From an uncultured Candidatus Saccharibacteria bacterium (lineage in GTDB: Bacteria; Patescibacteriota; Saccharimonadia; Saccharimonadales; CAIOMD01), in NCBI GenBank assembly GCA_964566135.1, contig CAZMHM010000004.1:12596-76595 (forward strand): a stretch of DNA of 64,000 nucleotides, in the 5' to 3' direction. The notes below the pieces were generated by a model that searched no databases, was not told the DNA's origin, and worked only from the letters and a program-made list of their open reading frames with translations. How positions within the stretch are numbered: position 1 is the first letter of the stretch; the number at the start of each line of letters is the position of its first letter. The position numbers and the translations under genes were made by a program. Shown piece by piece: positions 4,655-33,414 of the stretch.

Positions 4655-6059
4655 ATCCTGAATAGAGTACCGCCAAAGTACCCAAGGTAGCAAGTAGCCA
4701 CACAGGTAATGGTGTTGGTGCCGCAACTAAAGCTGGACCATCGGCCGAGTCAGTAGCAGCTTTTACCTTCGTGACTTTTGCCGTGGTAGCCTTTGGGGCC
4801 GTGGTTGTTTTAGCTGTAGTAGTGGCAGTTTTTGCGGTCTTTTTGGCAGTAGCCGCGGCAGTAGCAACTACCGTTTCAGCAACCGTAGGGACAGTGATTA
4901 CATTTTGATTGTTTTGCGTAGGGGTTATTGTCCATTTCCACTGCTCAGCGGTATCCTTTGCCCAAGATTGATTAGTTTTTGCAGCCTCATAACGCGTGCT
5001 GTCAAATAGCTGCCCTGCCGGGCCAGTAATTTTTACTGCCCCACCGCCGTTAGCAAGCGCAATACTTGTATCTGCAGATGTAATAACAAGAAAGCTGTGT
5101 GGTTCTATTGAAGCAGTACCACTAAACGTATGATGATACGCATACGTTTCGCCTGCATACACTGTGTAACCAGCCAAATCCTGGCGCACATCATTTGGGT
5201 TATACAGCTCTATCCATTCGTCATTCGCATCCGTCAATGGCGTTGCCGGGTCAATAAATAATTCATTTATGAGTATGGGTAATTCTTGTGGGACTATTTC
5301 TGCAACCGGTGGAGTTTGTGGCGGTTCAACTGGGTTTTGTTCTGAAGGAAGCGTTGTGTCAGCTGGCGGGGTTTCGGCGGGAGGCGTATCTGGTGCTGGA
5401 TCAGGGATAGGCTCAGGATCCGGAACGATAACGGGAACCTCGGGTTCAGTATTCGTAACATCTGGGGTCGGTGTGGCGATAATCTCAAAATCCAGCTTAT
5501 TATTGTTGGTGTCAACCGTAAGACCATCCTTTACAATGCGCTGGATTGAGCTTCCGTCGGGCGGTGCTACTGCTAGCTCGGTTTCGCTGATAGTTGTTGT
5601 CTTTGTGCCCCACCCTACAATATCAACAGCCACGCCCAGGCTATCAACAAGCTCAACGGTGCCGCCGGTTGCTGCCATACCGGCAAAACTAGAAGCTATT
5701 GCATAGGTAATTTTTGGCGAGGCATCGAGCATGAATGTGTCAGGAGTGATTAACAAAAACCCGTCTGGATATATGACAGTTGGACTCGGAAATGTTACAA
5801 AATATTTTGCCGTCGCCATATTACCAGTCGAGGTAATATACTGCAGTTTCCACCCGCTAATATCAATTTGAGAATCTGAAATATTATGAAGTTCAATAAA
5901 TTCTTGATCAGTCGTCTTTGTGCCAGCACCATTGAGTTGCAACTCATTGATTACAACTGATGTAGAGGGTGGCACCGGCTCAGCTCCTACGGCAAGAGTA
6001 CATGCTGGCAAAATGCATAATTGTAGGCTTAAAAATAGCTGAATTACGCGCCGCACCAT
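4569..6059 (-). CDS. Secreted, membrane-anchored protein with two lamin-tail-like (LTD) domains, a Pro-rich linker and a Lys/Thr/Ala-rich tract
   Basis: Signal peptide. INELQLNGAG...EFIELHN and INELFIDPA...EWIELYNP (LTD signature). PEPIPDPAPDTPP linker. KKTAKTATTTAKTTTAPKATTAKVTKVKA tract. C-terminal TM helix plus a basic tail. Confidence 0.75.
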   Translation of the reverse strand: MVRRVIQLFLSLQLCILPACTLAVGAEPVPPSTSVVINELQLNGAGTKTTDQEFIELHNISDSQIDISGWKLQYITSTGNMATAKYFVTFPSPTVIYPDGFLLITPDTFMLDASPKITYAIASSFAGMAATGGTVELVDSLGVAVDIVGWGTKTTTISETELAVAPPDGSSIQRIVKDGLTVDTNNNKLDFEIIATPTPDVTNTEPEVPVIVPDPEPIPDPAPDTPPAETPPADTTLPSEQNPVEPPQTPPVAEIVPQELPILINELFIDPATPLTDANDEWIELYNPNDVRQDLAGYTVYAGETYAYHHTFSGTASIEPHSFLVITSADTSIALANGGGAVKITGPAGQLFDSTRYEAAKTNQSWAKDTAEQWKWTITPTQNNQNVITVPTVAETVVATAAATAKKTAKTATTTAKTTTAPKATTAKVTKVKAATDSADGPALVAAPTPLPVWLLATLGTLAVLYSGYEYRFDIANKLYQLRNYRTARQNSRRQL

Positions 6060-24984: not shown

Positions 24985-25061
24985 TGGAGGGCCCAGTGGG
25001 ACTTGAACCCACGACACCCTGCTTAAAAGGCAGGTGCTCTAACCGGCTGAGCTATGGGCCC
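24985..25061 (-). tRNA. tRNA-Lys (anticodon UUU), CCA encoded
   Basis: Reverse complement GGGCCCATAGCTCAGCCGGTTAGAGCACCTGCCTTTTAAGCAGGGTGTCGTGGGTTCAAGTCCCACTGGGCCCTCCA folds as a cloverleaf. The anticodon loop is CTTTTAA. Confidence 0.93.
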
Positions 25062-25157: not shown

Positions 25158-25177
25158 CCGGCTGAGCTATGGGCCCG
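25158..25177 (-). repeat. 20-nt direct copy of the 5' end of tRNA-Lys (identical to 25043..25062)
   Basis: CCGGCTGAGCTATGGGCCCG occurs twice. An inverted copy of the adjacent D-arm segment (GGTTAGAGCAC) lies at 25115..25125. Confidence 0.85.
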
Positions 25178-25241: not shown

Positions 25242-25745
25242 TTAATGGTTGTGTTTATTTTTGTGATGCTTGTCGTGCTTGGGTTTTTTGAGCCAAAACC
25301 ATATGATACTGGCTATCATTCCAGCCGCAATAGCTAGCCCAAAATATGGCTTCACTAGTGTATATAGGTCAGATGCCTGTAGAGAATTCTGGGCATCATA
25401 CGGCAATTTAGCGATAACAAACATAAAACATAACAACGTGGCGGCAGCTGCCGGAATAATCTGTAAAATCATATCTGCTTTCACCGTTTTGCGATACAAA
25501 AACAACAGAATGATTGGCGCAGCCACGAGCAGCACTATTTGCACAACGCTGTACATTGGAAAATCTACGGTAATAAGCGAATTAATAATCTGGGTGAGTT
25601 CTTGAGCTGCAAGCCGAGCTAGTACTTCGCCACCACATAACGCCAGCAACATGTACACGGCATTACTGCGAAACAATATTGGAGCAACTCCAAATACGAC
25701 GCCGAGAATACCGAGTAATATAGGTGCACTCATAAGCTTAAGCAT
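25242..25745 (-). CDS. Integral membrane protein (5 predicted TM helices), unknown family
   Basis: Hydrophobic throughout, with a His/Lys-rich tail KKPKHDKHHKNKHNH. Last gene of the rimK-containing operon. Confidence 0.65.
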   Translation of the reverse strand: MLKLMSAPILLGILGVVFGVAPILFRSNAVYMLLALCGGEVLARLAAQELTQIINSLITVDFPMYSVVQIVLLVAAPIILLFLYRKTVKADMILQIIPAAAATLLCFMFVIAKLPYDAQNSLQASDLYTLVKPYFGLAIAAGMIASIIWFWLKKPKHDKHHKNKHNH

Positions 25746-25750
25746 AGCAC

Positions 25751-26263
25751 TTAGTCTATGCGAATCGTATCCCCTTCTTTGACGCCCTGGGAGTCAAATG
25801 TGCCCTCTGGCACCTCTATAACATACCAACTCGGTTGGTTTGCATGATAGATTTCTGGATATTCGCCCGGTTTGGCGTTGTGCTTAATATAGACAACCTT
25901 GCCATCTTTAGTTAGCCAAGCAATATCTATAGGGAATCGCATTTGCACCATCCACATGCGCCAGTCACCGTTTTCCTCAAAGTCAAACAGCATACCCTTA
26001 TCGGCTCCGAGCGCGTCGCGTTGCGACAGACCTTTTTCACGTTTTGCGGGCGTATCGGCAATTTCGAGTGTAAACGCTTTTTTGCCGATTGTTACGTCTG
26101 TGAACCCAACGTTGTTAACATGCTGTCTAAACACAAAAAAACCAGCAACAAGTGCTATAACAATCGCAATCGATGCAACTATTAGTGCTAATGGGCCGCG
26201 CTGTTTACGCGCCGACTCGGTCTTTTTTGTTTCTTTGTTTGGCATTTCGCTCAATATATTCAA
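25751..26263 (-). CDS. DUF192-family protein with N-terminal membrane anchor
   Basis: GLSQRDALGADKGMLFDF...MWMVQMRFPIDIAW...YVIEVPEG pattern. The start is 26263 or 26245, and either overlaps the rimK 3' end out of frame by 41-59 nt. Confidence 0.7.
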   Translation of the reverse strand: MNILSEMPNKETKKTESARKQRGPLALIVASIAIVIALVAGFFVFRQHVNNVGFTDVTIGKKAFTLEIADTPAKREKGLSQRDALGADKGMLFDFEENGDWRMWMVQMRFPIDIAWLTKDGKVVYIKHNAKPGEYPEIYHANQPSWYVIEVPEGTFDSQGVKEGDTIRID

Positions 26264-27107
26264 TTATTTTTGTCGCAACATCCCGCTTGGTAATTTTTTC
26301 GATACCAAAACCTGGGCTCGAATTAACTTCTAGCACCAATGGTCCTCTGTCGCTACGCATCATATCGACGCCACAAATATGCAAGCCCATTGCACGGGCT
26401 GCTTTTAGTGCTGTCTTTTCTTCTTCGTCGGTTAATTTAACCGTCTTACCTTCACCACCTTGGTGTAAGTTTGACCTAAAGTCGTCATCGAGACTTTGGC
26501 GCTTGTAGCTCGCAACAACGCGTGAACCAACTACAAACGCCCTAATATCGGTACCGGCGGATTCTTTAACAAACTCTTGCACTAAAAAGTTTACACCTTC
26601 TACATAGAATGCTTGCATTACAGCTTGTGCAGCCTTGCGGGTTTCGGCTAGTACAACACCATTTCCATGCGTGCCACGTGCCACTTTAACAATAAGTGGC
26701 GCCCCACCGGCTTTTTCAACAACGTCGTCAAGATCAGCTGTTTCACGAGCGAACACTGTTTTTGGAATACCAACACCAGCTTTGGCTAATAATTGATAAC
26801 TGCGCAGTTTATCGCGAGAACGCACAATAGCCATTGAGCTAGCAGTTGTATAGACGCCTTGCATTTCAAACTGACGTACAACAGCAGTACCATACTTGGT
26901 ATAGCTCTGGGCAATACGTGGAATAATAGCGTCAAAGCCTACTAGCGGTTCACCCTTATAGTGCACAACCGGGGAATTCTTTTCGACTGTAATATAGCAC
27001 TTAGCGTAATTGATAATGCGTACTTCATGGCCACGCTCTTTAGCTACTTGCTTGAGCCGTTGCGTCGAGTAGTTTGCTCCACCCTTAGATAAGATAGCAA
27101 TTTTCAT
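26205..27107 (-). CDS. rimK: RimK-type alpha-L-glutamate ligase (ATP-grasp)
   Basis: Full-length pattern MKIAILS...PRI...SRDKLRSYQLLAKAGVGIP...PLIVKVARGTHGNGVVL...DIRAFVVG...GVDMMRS..GPLVLEVNSSPG. Confidence 0.9.
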   Translation of the reverse strand: MKIAILSKGGANYSTQRLKQVAKERGHEVRIINYAKCYITVEKNSPVVHYKGEPLVGFDAIIPRIAQSYTKYGTAVVRQFEMQGVYTTASSMAIVRSRDKLRSYQLLAKAGVGIPKTVFARETADLDDVVEKAGGAPLIVKVARGTHGNGVVLAETRKAAQAVMQAFYVEGVNFLVQEFVKESAGTDIRAFVVGSRVVASYKRQSLDDDFRSNLHQGGEGKTVKLTDEEEKTALKAARAMGLHICGVDMMRSDRGPLVLEVNSSPGFGIEKITKRDVATKIIEYIERNAKQRNKKDRVGA

Positions 27108-27598
27108 TATCTCCCATCCTCTTCATCGTTAGGGAAATCAATGCCATACTGCTTTTTTAAATCAATTCGATTGATGCTTGTTTCCGCAGTATCAACCAAG
27201 AAACGATTGTTAAGCATTTTACGGCCAAGTAAAATTGGATAAATTTTCTTTGACCTATCGGCAAGCGAAAACGTTGCAGAGAAGATTTTTGGGCCTAGTT
27301 TTACCCTAAGTTTGACTTCATATCTCTCTTCTCTGTGACCAAAAGAATTTGCTATCCAGACAGATTTAAAATCCTTAGTTTTAACCTCAGTAGCTAAGCT
27401 ACCACAGACAGGATGCCCACCAAGAAGTACAAACGATAGTTCTGAACCATCATCTGAAAGCACGATATTCGAAGCATGAACAGCCGACCGGTAGGCACCA
27501 GTGTCTACCTTGGCAGGGATGTCAGCAATTTGCTGCTCCATAAAATGTAGCAACTCTGCTCGGCCTACGATTACCTTGTGAAAATCTGTTCTTGCCAT
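27107..27598 (-). CDS. Retropepsin-like protease of the RimK-associated (DUF785, 'putative ATP-dependent zinc protease', RimB-type) family
   Basis: AKVDTGAYRSAVHA (D-T-G) and ILLGRKML motifs. TAATG overlap with rimK. Confidence 0.75.
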   Translation of the reverse strand: MARTDFHKVIVGRAELLHFMEQQIADIPAKVDTGAYRSAVHASNIVLSDDGSELSFVLLGGHPVCGSLATEVKTKDFKSVWIANSFGHREERYEVKLRVKLGPKIFSATFSLADRSKKIYPILLGRKMLNNRFLVDTAETSINRIDLKKQYGIDFPNDEEDGR

Positions 27599-27691
27599 TT
27601 CAAACCAATACTATCAAACTAATTATGGTTATTGTATTTGTTTTTTCTATTTAACTAGTATATTATATTACTAATTCGATTATTTGTCAAT

Positions 27692-28933
27692 ATGAAAACA
27701 GTCCTCATCGTCGGTGATAGCATGAAGCAGCTTAGGGATAAAATCCTCGAGTTAGGCTATGATTACGTACAATTGCGCGACATCAGAAAATGTAAAAATC
27801 CCGAAAAAGTACTAAAACGACGAGTAGTCTGCGATTTCTCCTCGAACGATACTATTGATGTTGCACTTAAGGAGCTAAAAAAACGTTATGTCGTTGATGG
27901 CATTATTAGCACCTACGAGAATTATATTTTGCAAGCCGCATATGTTGCCGAAATACTTGGGCTCCGTGGGATGCCAATTAGTGCTGCAGAGGCGTGCACC
28001 GATAAATACATTATGCGCGAGCTGTTTTCTAGTGCCCCTCGAAAGATTAGCCCTTCTTTTCAAGAGGTGCATTCTTTTGATGATATACAGGTTTTTATGC
28101 AAAACGCTAGCTACCCCGTCATACTTAAACCCGCAAACCTAGCAAAAAGCTTATTGGTCACCAAAAGCAGTACCGCAGAAGAGCTAAAAGCAAACTACGA
28201 AAAAACTGTATCTACAATAGATGGTATCTATAGAAAATATGCTCCTAACCGTACACCAAAAATTATAATTGAAGAATTCATGGAAGGACCTGTGCATTCG
28301 GTAGACGCATTTGTTGATGAGAATGGGACACCTCATGTACTAGAGAATGTTGTAGACTATCAAACTGGCTATGACATTGGCTATGATGATAATTTTCACT
28401 ATAGCCGCCTTTTACCAAGTAAGCTTTCTGCAGAAGAAATCGCCGAAATCAGAGAAGTTGCCGCACTAGGCTGCCGGGCACTTGGCATGCAAAGTTCACC
28501 AGCACATGTAGAAATAATACGGACAGTTAATGGACCAATGATTGTTGAAATCGGTGCTCGCAATGGCGGTTATCGCGAACGAATGCATAGCATTGCGAAC
28601 GGCATTGATATTATCAAGAATGCGCTAGCTCTTAGTTTTGGCGAACCACTTGATTTAACACCAACTTGCAATGATTCTTGCGCAGTTCTAGAACTCTTTC
28701 CAAAGAACCCAGGAACATTTACTGGCGTATCGGGAGAGGCACAATTAAAAAATCTTTCGTCGCTTGTATACTTTGCCATCAAACAGCCTGTCGGGTCTTA
28801 TGTGGGTAAGTCTTCGGAAGGCTACAAGATGTGTGCAATTATCATCTTGCATAACGCTGATACGGCAGCGTTTGATCGTGACTTAGCGTTTGTTAACGAC
28901 AATGTTTTTATAGAGACATCAGATAATCAATAA
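27692..28933 (+). CDS. ATP-grasp enzyme of the L-amino-acid-ligase type (413 aa)
   Basis: A pre-ATP-grasp N-domain, then TDKYIMRELF...YPVILKPANLAKS...IIEEFMEGPVHSVDAF...AHVEIIRTVNGPMIVEIGARNGG. Confidence 0.75.
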   Translation: MKTVLIVGDSMKQLRDKILELGYDYVQLRDIRKCKNPEKVLKRRVVCDFSSNDTIDVALKELKKRYVVDGIISTYENYILQAAYVAEILGLRGMPISAAEACTDKYIMRELFSSAPRKISPSFQEVHSFDDIQVFMQNASYPVILKPANLAKSLLVTKSSTAEELKANYEKTVSTIDGIYRKYAPNRTPKIIIEEFMEGPVHSVDAFVDENGTPHVLENVVDYQTGYDIGYDDNFHYSRLLPSKLSAEEIAEIREVAALGCRALGMQSSPAHVEIIRTVNGPMIVEIGARNGGYRERMHSIANGIDIIKNALALSFGEPLDLTPTCNDSCAVLELFPKNPGTFTGVSGEAQLKNLSSLVYFAIKQPVGSYVGKSSEGYKMCAIIILHNADTAAFDRDLAFVNDNVFIETSDNQ

Positions 28934-29918
28934 AGACTTTTGTCACTCGAGACCCTTGATTGTTTGTTGGGTGCTCGTGGATATACAATGATGGACACTT
29001 GTTCACCTCATTGATCATGGGGGCCAATGACTCAATCGTACTATCTCGCTGAGGAATGTCAGATACAAGAATATCTACTCCACAAAGTGGCAGACGGCTT
29101 GTTCTGGCAACTTTTTCTGCCAATGTAATGAGCCAATCAGGGGTTTGATCAGTGATATTATCTGTCTCGCCGCCAGAGCCATAATTTGCCTTTCCAAGCA
29201 CCAATATTTCTTCGCCATCATGCGGGATTCTATCTGGATTATCGGTTATTGCAACGTATTCTAGTGCCTCGATAACATCAATAGTCGCTAGCCGGGCTAC
29301 ATATCTTTCGCCACGATCCGGTTTATCATTGGATTGCTCGATAAGCGCTTTAATTGTATCTTTGCCATTGCCAAATACTCGTGCAGGAATCCTTAATACT
29401 GTAGCGACAAACTTATAATTGATGCATAAAATTCTTAGGTCGACAGCGCCACTATACATCTGTTGCAGTAGGGCTACTCTGCCGGAAATGCTTGCAGCAT
29501 ATGCTCTTTCAAGCGCAGCAGTTAGCGTAGTTTTATCAGTAATGCCTACAGTTATGCCATCGCCATGCGCACCATCGAGAGGTTTAGTAACGATTTCAGT
29601 TGACCACGCTAGTGCCTCGTCTAGTAAATCGTTTTCTATATCTTTACGAACAAGGAGTGTCGCCAGCACTGGTAGCCCCGCATCACGCATAACTTTATAC
29701 GTTGCATACTTATTGTCTGCTTGCATTGCCGCAGCAAACGTTGTGCCAGGAGGAGTCGAGCTGTAGATATCAACAGGGCCGTTATCTCTATGAATAGTAA
29801 TAAGTGCACTACCGGTTACTGGCACCGTAACCTTTAGGTTACGGCTTAAGGCTTCGGTACATATCAAGCGATTTGTCTGCCGAAAGCTATCAAGATTATC
29901 TTTTGTAACTTCGACCAT
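28908..29918 (-). CDS. Stand-alone ATP-grasp protein resembling the G domain of cyanophycin synthetase CphA
   Basis: KPLDGAHGDGIT, DLRILCINYKFVATVLRIPARVFGNGKDTIKALIEQSN, ANYGSGGETDNITD, GVDILVSDI and INEVNKCPSL match remembered CphA G-domain blocks (KPLDGNHGRGIT, RVPAHVIGDGK.TI..LIE, ANLSTGG, GIDVV..DI, EVNAAPG). Confidence 0.75.
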   Translation of the reverse strand: MVEVTKDNLDSFRQTNRLICTEALSRNLKVTVPVTGSALITIHRDNGPVDIYSSTPPGTTFAAAMQADNKYATYKVMRDAGLPVLATLLVRKDIENDLLDEALAWSTEIVTKPLDGAHGDGITVGITDKTTLTAALERAYAASISGRVALLQQMYSGAVDLRILCINYKFVATVLRIPARVFGNGKDTIKALIEQSNDKPDRGERYVARLATIDVIEALEYVAITDNPDRIPHDGEEILVLGKANYGSGGETDNITDQTPDWLITLAEKVARTSRLPLCGVDILVSDIPQRDSTIESLAPMINEVNKCPSLYIHEHPTNNQGSRVTKVFIDYLMSL

Positions 29919-30817
29919 TATTTCGTCTTTGAGACTAAATAGTCGTTTAGAACCGAAAGTTTTGCGGGCACATTGCTACCCGTACTAAGCTGAGGCATGT
30001 TGTTTGCTTCTAAGAAGTAGTGTTTTCCATCTCTTTTATCAACAACCATATCAACACCACCAACTTCTCTGCGTAACTCACGACTAATCGTTACTGCTTC
30101 GTCTACCATAACCTTGGATAAATCTTCGACGGGCACAACAACACCCGACCCGCCCTTAGAAGTGTTATTTAGGTGACTGCCTTCTTCGCCCTTGCGATGT
30201 ATTGCAAGCTTAACCGTACCGTCTAAAATAATTAACCTGTAATCGCCGTCATTTTCGATAAACGTTTGCACCACAAATTGCTGATCGGTGTTATCTGCGA
30301 TAATCTGTTTGATTTCTTCGGGACTTTTGGCAAGATAATTGTGATTACCCCGAGAAGCAGCTACGGCTTTTACAATTAATGGAAATGTATGGTTTGATGC
30401 CCAATTTGCAACTGCATCACTATTGTTTGTGACGATAAATGGAATAGTCTGAATACCCGCAAGACCAGCTATAACATACTGGCTGATTTTAGTGCGAGAA
30501 CGCGTGTACAAGGCTTCTTGATTTGCGTGAGGTATCCCGTAATATTCAGCATAACGCGCTACAGATAAAGCAGTATCCTCGAGTAGCTTTGTTTTAAACC
30601 AACCAAATTGAAATATCGCATCAAAATTGCTTAAATCAACATTATCACCAGTAGTAATACTAAGTTTTGTATCATAGCTAATAATTAAATCTTCATAGTC
30701 ACAGGCAACGTATGTTACGTCTGCAGACTCAAAATCCTTCATGCCGGCTTTCATTGTTTGTGATGTATCGTAGTCGATTCGATCATCGCGACGACATAGT
30801 AATAGTATTTGCTTCAT
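29918..30817 (-). CDS. Second RimK/GshB-like ATP-grasp ligase
   Basis: PLIVKAVAASRGNHNYL, FVVQTFIENDGDYRLIIL, GGVDMVVDKRDGKHYFLEANNMPQ. I start at MKQILLL (30817). TAATG overlap with the CphA-like gene. Confidence 0.7.
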   Translation of the reverse strand: MKQILLLCRRDDRIDYDTSQTMKAGMKDFESADVTYVACDYEDLIISYDTKLSITTGDNVDLSNFDAIFQFGWFKTKLLEDTALSVARYAEYYGIPHANQEALYTRSRTKISQYVIAGLAGIQTIPFIVTNNSDAVANWASNHTFPLIVKAVAASRGNHNYLAKSPEEIKQIIADNTDQQFVVQTFIENDGDYRLIILDGTVKLAIHRKGEEGSHLNNTSKGGSGVVVPVEDLSKVMVDEAVTISRELRREVGGVDMVVDKRDGKHYFLEANNMPQLSTGSNVPAKLSVLNDYLVSKTK

Positions 30818-30882
30818 GGAAATTAGCTTATCATAATCTGTTAGTGCTTGCAATATTTATCTTTTTATGTTATTATGCTGTT

Positions 30883-31617
30883 ATGAATATCATCGCAATT
30901 GGCGGTGGCGAAAAAGAAAAAGCCATTAGTCAGGCATTAGCAGCGGCAGATAACCAGAATGTTTTATTAATTCCCTCCGCATGCTCGACGGAAACATCTT
31001 ATAGCAAAAAAGTTGGTTTGCTGGTTGAATATTTCCATAAATTTGGCATCCCTGGTGTACAAGTGTTGCATGGCTATGACGAAACGCCTTCTCGGGCACA
31101 AATAGAAGATATGTTTGGCGAAAGTGGCATGGCGTATGTTATTGGTGGTAACACACCTTATATGTTGGATACTATCAAAAACCACGGTACGGATGTCGAA
31201 ATAGCAAACGCCACTCGGAACGGCATGGTACTCGCAGGTACAAGCGCCGGCGCAATTCTCCCGTTTAGGCACGGCCAAGTAAACCCAGCCACTAAACCAG
31301 CTTTGCAAGAATGGGAATTTGAATATCGTGAGGGGCTTGGCATTGTCGATGCCACTGTTGGCGTTCATGCCGGTAAAAAAGATGCTGTTATTGGCGGTTT
31401 TCGCGAAAAAACAAGAGGTGAGTACCTAGAGGAAACGGTTGGTTCGATCTCTGATACGGCACTCGCGATAGATGAAGGGGCTGCGGTTTCAGTGACCGAA
31501 AGTGGACTTAGCGTTATCACATCTAGTCCCGATGCTCGTGTTCGAATACTACAAAAAGGCAAAAAAAATACCACCCTTGGTGATGGTGATACTTTTAGCG
31601 ATATTAAAGCCCTTTAG
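30883..31617 (+). CDS. Peptidase S51 family (cyanophycinase / dipeptidase E type)
   Basis: MNIIAIGGGEK, VIGGNTPYML and LAGTSAGAI (Ser nucleophile motif). I chose ATG 30883 rather than the track's 30712 extension, which overlaps the divergent gene. Confidence 0.8.
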   Translation: MNIIAIGGGEKEKAISQALAAADNQNVLLIPSACSTETSYSKKVGLLVEYFHKFGIPGVQVLHGYDETPSRAQIEDMFGESGMAYVIGGNTPYMLDTIKNHGTDVEIANATRNGMVLAGTSAGAILPFRHGQVNPATKPALQEWEFEYREGLGIVDATVGVHAGKKDAVIGGFREKTRGEYLEETVGSISDTALAIDEGAAVSVTESGLSVITSSPDARVRILQKGKKNTTLGDGDTFSDIKAL

Positions 31618-31724
31618 CGGTTGGCTTTTAGCACACGCAAAAAGACAAAACCAATCATAAACAAAAGGACCGCTAAAATTAGGACAATCATAGTAATAAA
31701 GCCGTTTTGATTTTGCCGGTTCAT
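31614..31724 (-). CDS. Candidate 36-aa single-TM small protein
   Basis: Manual translation gives MNRQNQNGFITMIVLILAVLLFMIGFVFLRVLKANR. AAGGA lies 6 nt upstream. Too short for the ORF track. Confidence 0.3.
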   Translation of the reverse strand: MNRQNQNGFITMIVLILAVLLFMIGFVFLRVLKANR

Positions 31725-32880: not shown

Positions 32881-33414
32881 TTACTTATTTGGGCCTTGTT
32901 TGCTTAAGGTATCATACAAATTTTTTGGGGGCATACCTAATTGAATTTGGTCTACAATTAAAATTAACTCTTCGGTTTTGTCCTTAAGTGTCCGCACTGC
33001 TTCATCAATTTCATTTAATTGAGCTGCTTTGACCTTAAGGATTTTGTGCGCCACTTTATTTCTAGATTCGTTGATTGAATTTAAGAGAGCCAGGATATCT
33101 TCTCGCCTTGGAAACTCAAACTTCTTAAGTCCTTTTATACAGTTCCCAATATTCATATCTTTAATCGTCGTTTTTCTGATAGTAATTACACCATGATAAT
33201 ATTCACCGACCGCGGTTTCGGCATAATCTGTAATGTTCGCCAATAGATACTCAGCAAGATAATCCGCAACATTCATGTACAGTAATGCAGCAGATAGCTC
33301 ATAGGCCAGAGATTCATCTTCATCCTTCGCTACATTACTCTTCGATAAATGTTCTCTAGCAATAGCAAGGAAATGTCTTTTTACCTCTAACTCTTCATGA
33401 GAGAAAGCTGGCAT
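32881..33414 (-). CDS. Hypothetical helical protein with a HEPN-type R-N-x-x-A-H motif, inserted between dnaK and dnaJ
   Basis: SINESRNKVAHKIL fits Rx4-6H. There are 2-nt gaps to both the dnaK stop and the dnaJ start. Confidence 0.5.
   Translation of the reverse strand: MPAFSHEELEVKRHFLAIAREHLSKSNVAKDEDESLAYELSAALLYMNVADYLAEYLLANITDYAETAVGEYYHGVITIRKTTIKDMNIGNCIKGLKKFEFPRREDILALLNSINESRNKVAHKILKVKAAQLNEIDEAVRTLKDKTEELILIVDQIQLGMPPKNLYDTLSKQGPNK

Follow-up and report, generated by a model that had tools for sequence, protein, structure and literature searches.

A modular block of ATP-grasp ligases and peptidases beside dnaJ in Saccharibacteria, with a stand-alone relative of the cyanophycin synthetase G domain

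The closest described counterparts of the locus analysed here are the RimABK/RimBK system of ribosomal protein S6 polyglutamylation (Pseudomonas; RimK of E. coli) and the cyanophycin enzymes CphA1/CphA2 and CphB. RimK and the G domain of CphA1 are alike in their chemistry: both phosphorylate the C-terminal carboxylate of a peptide and then add an acidic amino acid, the G domain extending the C-terminus with Asp. In the first of these systems RimB cuts poly-Glu and stimulates the synthesis of poly-alpha-Glu by RimK, and a RimBK hybrid protein is known as a natural fusion (PMC11957791). The present locus lies within 64,000 nucleotides (nt) of an uncultured Candidatus Saccharibacteria bacterium (assembly GCA_964566135.1, contig CAZMHM010000004.1, positions 12,596 to 76,595, forward strand), and this whole stretch is referred to as the window. 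At 26205-31617 of the window, six open reading frames (ORFs) encode four ATP-grasp ligases and two peptidases. An earlier annotation made from the letters alone (the original prediction) had proposed that these six genes build and recycle a peptide or amino-acid polymer, either cyanophycin-like or in the form of Glu/Asp tails on a protein. Each of the six gene calls, both of the TAATG overlaps and the GGNT and GTSAGA motifs it listed are present in the sequence, and its family assignments were upheld by Pfam, NCBIfam and PDB sequence searches and by two AlphaFold models searched with Foldseek. We tentatively read the locus as an expanded, Saccharibacteria-specific RimBK-type system that would extend and trim acidic C-terminal peptide chains, whether as protein tails or as free oligomers.

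The RimK gene (26205..27107, minus strand) encodes an alpha-L-glutamate ligase of 300 amino acids (aa), from the family that makes poly-alpha-Glu or extends the C-terminus of S6, that scores above its equivalog cutoff (NF007764, 349.1 bits against 331) and contains both the pre-ATP-grasp domain Rimk_N (131.7 bits) and the ATP-grasp domain RimK (199.1 bits). As in the known Rim systems, this true RimK orthologue has a gene for a DTG-type, retropepsin-like aspartic peptidase immediately upstream (27107..27598, minus strand; 163 aa; PF05618, 61.3 bits against a cutoff of 27). The two genes are coupled by a TAATG stop/start overlap, and their recognition as a RimK/retropepsin pair was correct. The peptidase, here called RimB-like, falls far under the equivalog cutoffs for RimB (NF052261, 48.4 against 200 bits) and RloA3 (55.2 against 210 bits). 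Its catalytic DTG is D32-T33-G34, and D[TS]G is present in 44 of 44 related ORFs (DTG in 43, DSG in one); in RimB, residue D31 is essential (PMC11957791). The locus departs from RimABK in other respects as well: RimA is absent, S6 is a putative target in Saccharibacteria, and the pair is accompanied by up to three further, dissimilar ATP-grasp ligases and by an S51-family or MATCAP-like peptidase.

Comparisons among relatives were made with 53 non-redundant Saccharibacteria loci, in which ORFs within a few kilobases of the G-domain-like gene described below were labelled by their best match to the window proteins. RimK orthologues with 62-90% identity occur in 43 of the 53 loci, the nearest of the fetched loci being L018, with a RimK 90% identical to that of the window. 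In the cultured Saccharibacterium Southlakia epibionticum, rimK and a rimB-like gene are likewise dnaJ-proximal and were non-essential by transposon sequencing (Tn-seq; PMC10633639 supplement), which fits an accessory or regulatory role.

The gene at 28908..29918 (minus strand) encodes a 336-aa stand-alone homologue of the G (ATP-grasp) domain of cyanophycin synthetase. The protein aligns with positions 163-471 of TIGR02068 at 163.5 bits, against a cutoff of 850, and carries neither an N domain (PF18921) nor a Mur-ligase-like M domain, leaving the three-domain architecture of CphA1 incomplete. An AlphaFold2 (AF2) model built from 20 homologues had a predicted local distance difference test (pLDDT) score of 93.7, and its top Foldseek match was CphA1 of Trichodesmium (TeCphA1; 7wae, E 3e-29, TMq 0.84, 325 columns, 28% identity), confined to the G domain of that structure. 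Further matches were to other CphA1, CphA2 and GshF structures, while RimK and LysX reached merely a TMq of ~0.5. The protein thus amounts to a complete G domain and nothing else.

Active-site residues were compared between 77 stand-alone homologues and 20 Acidobacteriota CphA1 proteins from the fetched loci, with roles taken from the substrate complex of TeCphA1 (PMC9427784). The window protein shares all of the catalytic and Mg/ATP residues of TeCphA1, as K70, K112, H118, R162, R176, N245, D282, E304 and N306. By the TeCphA1 positions, neither group shows any variation at K220, K261, H267, R309, N394, D431 or N452, and 76 of the 77 stand-alone homologues have R323 and E450. The residues conserved in the stand-alone set are those for ATP/Mg, for stabilising the acyl-phosphate and for binding a side-chain carboxylate, including R323 and N394, which bind the beta-carboxylate of Asp in TeCphA1 (PMC9427784).

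The contacts to cyanophycin itself have been replaced. Glu215, which grips the Arg side chain of the terminal beta-Asp-Arg unit, is Met65 in the window protein and is never Glu among the 77 homologues, where the position is R, H or K in 39 and L, Y or M in most of the remainder. Arg458, which grips the alpha-carboxylate of the incoming Asp, is Tyr312 in the window protein, Y, F, A or G in most relatives and Arg in 4 of 77 (both roles from PMC9427784). Ser396 corresponds to Gly247, and Gly stands there in the stand-alone proteins. Both Glu215 and Arg458 are retained in 20 of the 20 Acidobacteriota CphA1 proteins. Because the catalytic residues are intact and the cyanophycin contacts are replaced, the G-domain-like enzyme should be active and probably still handles a carboxylate-bearing substrate, though it is probably not built for recognising cyanophycin. 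The reversal of charge at Glu215 would fit an acidic acceptor rather than beta-Asp-Arg.

In a neighbour-joining tree (no bootstrap), 160 stand-alone proteins and six RimB-fused ones form a single clade, apart from both the proteins of CphA1 size and the large tandem ATP-grasp proteins. Homologues of the G-domain-like protein come almost exclusively from Saccharibacteria metagenome-assembled genomes (MAGs). The nearest relatives from outside Saccharibacteria include large proteins of 799-1771 aa (P0050, P0051, P0055, P0057, P0059, P0060 and P0067) with two to four tandem ATP-grasp modules, most of which end in an acylphosphatase domain; one of these large proteins has a PGA_cap (poly-gamma-glutamate capsule) domain and another an LPG_synthase_C domain.

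The third ligase, LAL1 (27692..28933, plus strand; 413 aa), is of the L-amino acid ligase (LAL) type. With the characterised members BacD/YwfE, BL00235, RizA and TabS it shares the ATP-grasp_4 core (71.9 bits) and a weak C-terminal match (LAL_C2, 23.1 bits, under the 29.4 cutoff), and its best PDB matches, BL00235 (3vot, 5e-18) and BacD (7e-15), indicate relatedness at the level of the family only. It differs from them in its low sequence identity, in having no equivalog match (BacD model NF053745, 55.9 bits, cutoff 850) and in its setting, which is a RimK-type locus and not a cluster for the biosynthesis of antibiotics or dipeptides. Two types of paralogue are found among the relatives: LAL1 orthologues (50-62% identity) in 17 of the 53 loci and LAL2, ~30% identical, in 13. 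Scores of LAL1 against the Ddl models are <=34 bits (cutoffs >240), and the Ddl, PurK, PurT and GshB models give all three extra ligases <=34 bits, with cutoffs of 243-502. As such, the additional ATP-grasp enzymes do not belong to these housekeeping families.

RK2, encoded at 29918..30817 (minus strand; 299 aa, with a TTG start at 30853 also possible), is a divergent RimK/LysX-like ATP-grasp ligase whose gene is joined to that of the G-domain-like protein by the second TAATG overlap. It matches Pfam RimK with 68.7 bits and TIGR00768 with 88.5 bits, under the cutoff of 143.4, and has no Rimk_N match. The Mg/ATP motifs are kept, whereas the RimK motifs GTHGNG and FRSNLH are replaced. The top Foldseek matches of its AF2 model (pLDDT 94.0) were RimK, ArgX/LysX and graspetide macrocyclases, and a profile search gave weak matches to graspetide maturases. 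These nearest structural relatives, namely RimK, LysX/ArgX acting on LysW and the graspetide ligases, all modify carboxylates of peptides or proteins. The C-terminal Glu of a carrier protein is where LysX and ArgX attach an amino acid, and RK2 resembles these enzymes in fold; however, the locus contains neither a LysW-like carrier nor lysine or arginine pathway genes, and RK2 scores 48.6 bits against a LysX equivalog cutoff of 275.6. A database search returned 162 RK2 homologues, and those with organism names were from Saccharibacteria or Patescibacteria.

The second peptidase of the window (30883..31617, plus strand; 244 aa) belongs to the S51 family of serine peptidases (PF03575, 90.4 bits against a cutoff of 23.9) and is under the curated cutoffs for PepE (NF003642, 36.4 against 156 bits) and for cyanophycinase (TIGR02069, 28.7 against 126.6 bits). 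The Ser of GxSAGA and a downstream His are kept in nine of nine cluster-associated S51 proteins, and the acidic third residue varies in position. S51 genes were found in 8 of the 53 loci and are associated with RK2 (4/8; Fisher p = 0.003, phylogeny ignored).

The neighbourhood recurs in relatives, usually directly 3' of dnaJ and 5' of genes for a DUF192 protein, a membrane protein and ComEC. Because the same genes are found together at one genomic position in dozens of Saccharibacteria species-level genomes, the arrangement goes beyond chance. Near the G-domain-like gene, in addition to the RimK and LAL counts above, a RimB-like gene was present in 41 of the 53 loci, RK2 in six, a short RimK-like ligase in eight, the DUF192 gene in 24 and the membrane-protein gene in 25. 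Loci from gut, rumen and Nanosyncoccus MAGs (L026-L046) usually contain just the trio of RimB, RimK and G-domain-like ligase, and most other loci, largely from uncultured Saccharibacteria MAGs, have larger gene sets. The exact six-gene set of the window was found again in one further species (L001/L007). The original prediction is thus partly supported: the lack of synteny in relatives that it named as a refutation is not seen, but the locus is modular rather than a fixed operon, its six genes being one combination within a variable ligase and peptidase block.

Other genes take positions within this block in some relatives. A family of ~450 aa ('u4') adjoins the ligase genes in eight loci that have no S51 gene (L019:9061-10425, L003:5299-6639, L009, L023, L025, L047, L070 and L072), never occurring alongside S51. 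HExxxH is invariant and followed by EE[GSA] in seven of seven full-length members; one member passes the Pfam MATCAP/DUF1704 model (30.7 against 27 bits) and two others have no match to a hidden Markov model. Assignment to MATCAP is probable on the one Pfam match and these motifs, and the family looks like an alternative peptidase partner at the S51 position. A small GNAT acetyltransferase gene occupies the divergent position of S51 in L003 (6625-7107), L038 and L086 (5409-5882), and its pairing with the G-domain-like ligase reproduces the two domains of Ngg, the N-acetylglutaminylglutamine amide (NAGGN) synthetase. A sortase gene (71 bits) lies directly upstream of the G-domain-like gene in L014, L015, L020 and L021. 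MurL is a UDP-MurNAc-L-Ala-L-Glu epimerase that epimerises the C-terminal Glu, and L089 encodes a MurL-like protein (4682-6004; NF041275, 148.7 bits, E 1.7e-43, cutoff 700) whose gene shares 4 nt with the beginning of a RimB::RK2 fusion gene, with rimK following. A role for it in making D-Glu-ended chains is conceivable; as the gene is present in L089 only, it was set aside as support. Between dnaJ and the ligase block, five loci (L010, L015, L020, L021 and L022, all containing LAL2) have a gene for a GGDEF diguanylate cyclase (115 bits), and none adjoins the block in the window. This neighbour recalls the control of Pseudomonas RimK by cyclic di-GMP (c-di-GMP; PMC7343187), with a GGDEF protein as the c-di-GMP enzyme in these loci and the EAL protein RimA in Pseudomonas.

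Gene fusions give the strongest grounds for placing the extra ligases in one functional system with RimB and RimK. G-domain-like::RimB-like fusions, in which the C-terminal RimB-like domain keeps D[TS]G, were found in P0088, P0099, P0105, P0111 and P0115 and, more weakly, in L047. RimB-like::RK2-like fusions were found in L019, P0268, P0271, P0272, P0274, P0276, P0277 and P0282. In two of two fusion contexts examined rimK follows directly: L086 has a G-domain-like::RimB-like fusion and then rimK within a window-like dnaJ…ComEC-YebC-RuvC neighbourhood, and L089 has the RimB-like::RK2-like fusion in front of rimK in a dnaJ-proximal locus. Counting the published RimBK hybrid (PMC11957791), which these ligase-peptidase fusions resemble, three different ligase families are found fused to a RimB-type peptidase.

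The expanded RimBK-type reading is favoured, tentatively, because RimK and the CphA1 G domain share their chemistry, because the relatives of RK2 act on peptide or protein carboxylates and because RimB both cuts poly-Glu and stimulates its synthesis. It builds on the observed protein families, the intact catalytic residues, the lost cyanophycin-specific residues, the conserved modular synteny and the ligase-RimB fusions. What the enzymes act on, in which order they react, what they make and whether their target is a protein tail or a free peptide are inferred from these observations. RimK would activate a C-terminal alpha-carboxylate and add L-Glu repeatedly, to S6 or as free poly-alpha-Glu. 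The G-domain-like ligase and RK2 would use the same chemistry, in which an acyl-phosphate formed on a peptide carboxylate is attacked by an amino acid, and the residue that they would add to this same chain or acidic tail is probably of the Asp or Glu type. The LAL-type enzyme may supply a dipeptide or add another residue, and the RimB-like retropepsin would cleave within the chain. The S51 family is known for Asp-specific cleavage, and the peptidase of the window could in an Asp-directed manner trim and recycle the products. Between the two products put forward in the original prediction, Glu/Asp tails fit better than a cyanophycin-like polymer.

Several points weigh against this reading. The substrate and product are proposals from the genes alone, and the counts of co-occurrence all start from one gene, with no correction for phylogeny. 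A locus-encoded protein with a recurrent acidic C-terminus was sought in the loci and none was found. Nor did tblastn of the window and all 91 fetched loci find rpsF, the gene for S6, which was sought for the C-terminus of its product. LAL-family enzymes normally join free amino acids, a habit that would point to free peptides rather than protein tails. The loss of Arg458 leaves the incoming substrate uncertain, and the charge-reversal argument assumes a CphA1-like dimer, since Glu215 acts from the neighbouring protomer in CphA1 (PMC9427784). In 10 of the 53 loci the G-domain-like gene has no adjacent rimK, usually with LAL2 instead. Conversely, L090 (GCA_040959485.1, a 935-kb contig from a near-complete genome) carries S51, RK2, LAL, RimB, RimK, DUF192 and membrane-protein genes in window order and lacks the G-domain-like gene. 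Because of these loci without rimK and the absence of the G-domain-like gene from L090, the modules can evidently work independently.

A bolder form of the expanded RimBK-type reading, which we regard as unlikely, is a bacterial C-terminal tail code. RimK, the CphA-G-like ligase, RK2 and the LAL-type enzyme would then be writers that add different residues to the acidic C-terminus of S6 or another protein, the RimB-like peptidase and an S51 or MATCAP-like carboxypeptidase would be the erasers, and c-di-GMP would exert control in some lineages, making up a prokaryotic counterpart of the tubulin tyrosination/glutamylation cycle. The likeness to the tubulin tail cycle (TTL/TTLL with MATCAP and CCP carboxypeptidases) is one of logic only, ATP-grasp writers and peptidase erasers working on an acidic tail, extended by the MATCAP/DUF1704-like HExxxH protein that replaces S51 in eight related loci. 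The locus differs in being bacterial, with no tubulin-like target known, in giving marginal matches to the Pfam TTL model and, within the window, in having no MATCAP-like gene.

Among the alternatives to chain extension and trimming, the best survivor, possible if rather doubtful, is a small soluble peptide, two to four free amino acids joined together, that could serve as a compatible solute or for protection, as NAGGN or glutathione do, and be turned over by the peptidases. The LAL-type family makes dipeptides in this way, S51 enzymes such as PepE are dipeptidases, and in ten loci no rimK is adjacent. After CphA1, moreover, the G-domain-like protein is nearest to the ATP-grasp halves of two makers of small peptides, Ngg (120 bits) and the bifunctional GshAB (116 bits), and the GNAT gene in three related loci recreates the Ngg pair. 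Yet both of these scores are far under their cutoffs, and a GNAT, an AsnO-like amidotransferase and a GshA domain are all missing from the block of the window. That the fusion partner is a RimB-like endopeptidase, and that a genuine RimK polymerase is tightly linked, suggests chains instead of dipeptides, and a dedicated peptide solute would presumably be costly for Saccharibacteria, which lack amino acid biosynthesis.

A cyanophycin-like storage polymer, in which the G domain would build a poly-Asp backbone, another ATP-grasp enzyme would stand in for the M domain and attach the side-chain residues and S51 would be the cyanophycinase, we consider improbable. CphA1 is indeed the nearest family to the G-domain-like protein by sequence and by fold, the Asp beta-carboxylate binders R323 and N394 are conserved, and the S51 peptidase is of the cyanophycinase family, a member of which often adjoins true CphA1 loci in Acidobacteriota. 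Against these stand the missing N and M domains with 163 bits where TIGR02068 requires 850, the separate clade, and the replacement of Glu215 and Arg458, which the Acidobacteriota proteins all retain. The S51 protein, for its part, scores well below the cyanophycinase cutoff and is absent from 45 of the 53 loci, and the genes to which the G-domain-like gene is linked are those of RimK and RimB, not of a cyanophycinase. Automated pipelines nevertheless apply the cyanophycin label, with JGI annotating close homologues of the G-domain-like protein as 'cyanophycin synthetase'. According to a 2026 preprint, which discusses the use of cyanophycin, 5 of 21 Ca. Lutisaccharimonas (Saccharimonadia) MAGs encode a 'cyanophycin synthetase' and 13 an S51 'dipeptidase E'. 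If the genes of the preprint are of the family described here, that inference is doubtful; on the residue analysis, cyanophycin storage should not be inferred from stand-alone G-domain genes.

Editing of cell-wall peptides, that is, of peptidoglycan stem peptides or cross-bridges with the peptidases recycling muropeptides, is less probable still. ATP-grasp ligases build cross-bridges in some Gram-positive bacteria, four loci have sortase genes beside the block, and the DUF192 and membrane-protein genes are co-directional with rimK. The main prop of this explanation is the MurL-like epimerase gene translationally coupled to the RimB::RK2 fusion, which is found in one locus, and the anchor gene is a true RimK. 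Furthermore, no ligase scores near any Ddl or Mur model, and the ligases and peptidases have no obvious N-terminal hydrophobic segment in translations read by eye, unlike the DUF192 protein. Finally, that unrelated genes merely share a permissive insertion site by the dnaK operon is most improbable: gene content at the site is highly variable, each module can be missing and rimK and rimB are dispensable in S. epibionticum (Tn-seq, PMC10633639 supplement), yet unrelated genes would not be expected to fuse, to be coupled by TAATG or to belong to the same classes, ATP-grasp ligases and peptidases, recruited to one site again and again.

Within the block, the LAL-type and G-domain-like genes are convergent and their 3' ends overlap by 26 nt, and the intergenic gaps measure 93, 65 and 148 bp. 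The 93-bp divergent region shared by rimB-rimK and the LAL-type gene contains a promoter-like site 5' of rimB-rimK (27662..27690, minus strand), a perfect TTGACA-17-TATAAT that agrees with the consensus at 12 of 12 positions and is a consensus match only. Another such consensus match lies 5' of S51 (30848..30876, plus strand; TTGCAA-17-TATTAT, preceded by a TG) and stops 7 nt short of its ATG; if this promoter-like site is real, the S51 transcript would have almost no leader. A search for a shared operator, in the form of a repeat present in both divergent promoter regions, gave nothing convincing. A signature of horizontal transfer was rejected, as the guanine-plus-cytosine content of the block (0.42-0.43) equals that of the rest of the window. 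A graspetide-like reading with a precursor of the type of ribosomally synthesised and post-translationally modified peptides was rejected too: the gaps are short, and the sole small ORF there is a hydrophobic one of 36 aa (MNRQNQNGFITMIVLILAVLLFMIGFVFLRVLKANR; 31614-31724, minus strand) between dnaJ and the S51 gene, which may encode a small membrane protein. Further on, between dnaK and dnaJ, the window has a 177-aa ORF (32881-33414, minus strand), and relatives carry other small ORFs at this place; the dnaK operon therefore has a variable insert.

On the other side of the block, DUF192 and membrane-protein genes continue 3' of rimK on the same strand, as originally predicted. The DUF192 gene (25751..26263, minus strand; PF02643, 105 bits) overlaps the 3' end of rimK and encodes a protein with an N-terminal hydrophobic segment. 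Because it is also found in loci without rimK, it may be part of a conserved backbone rather than of the ligase system, and its membership is uncertain. Equally uncertain is the membership of the small multi-pass membrane protein (25242..25745, minus strand), which has no Pfam or NCBIfam match and whose homologues always lie downstream of the ligase block. About 180 bp past its gene is a tRNA-Lys(UUU) gene (24985-25061), of whose 5' end an exact 20-nt copy (CCGGCTGAGCTATGGGCCCG, plus strand) is located at 25158-25177, 115 nt off. This copy may be a fragment left by a duplication or integration event.

In the searchable literature we found no description of the locus or of the stand-alone G-domain family, and no paper that connects RimK or ATP-grasp ligases with Saccharibacteria. 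The locus is a real finding that reaches further than the RimK/retropepsin pair already known, and we would class it as an ATP-grasp ligase and peptidase system of the RimBK kind, whose function we infer, with an uncharacterised ligase family at risk of mis-annotation. Saccharibacteria have genomes of ~1 Mb with almost no biosynthesis. In genomes this small each retained enzyme is informative, and yet some of them devote one conserved site to as many as four ATP-dependent peptide ligases and two peptidases. If the system edits the tail of a ribosomal protein, it would be a compact device for translational control in episymbionts, and a tail code would let an organism that has very few regulators besides adjust its translation. 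Should free acidic peptides be the product, the system would offer a new way of making amino-acid oligomers without the ribosome. In either case the clade of ~160 sequences, together with its RimB fusions, gives biochemists a defined and tractable target.

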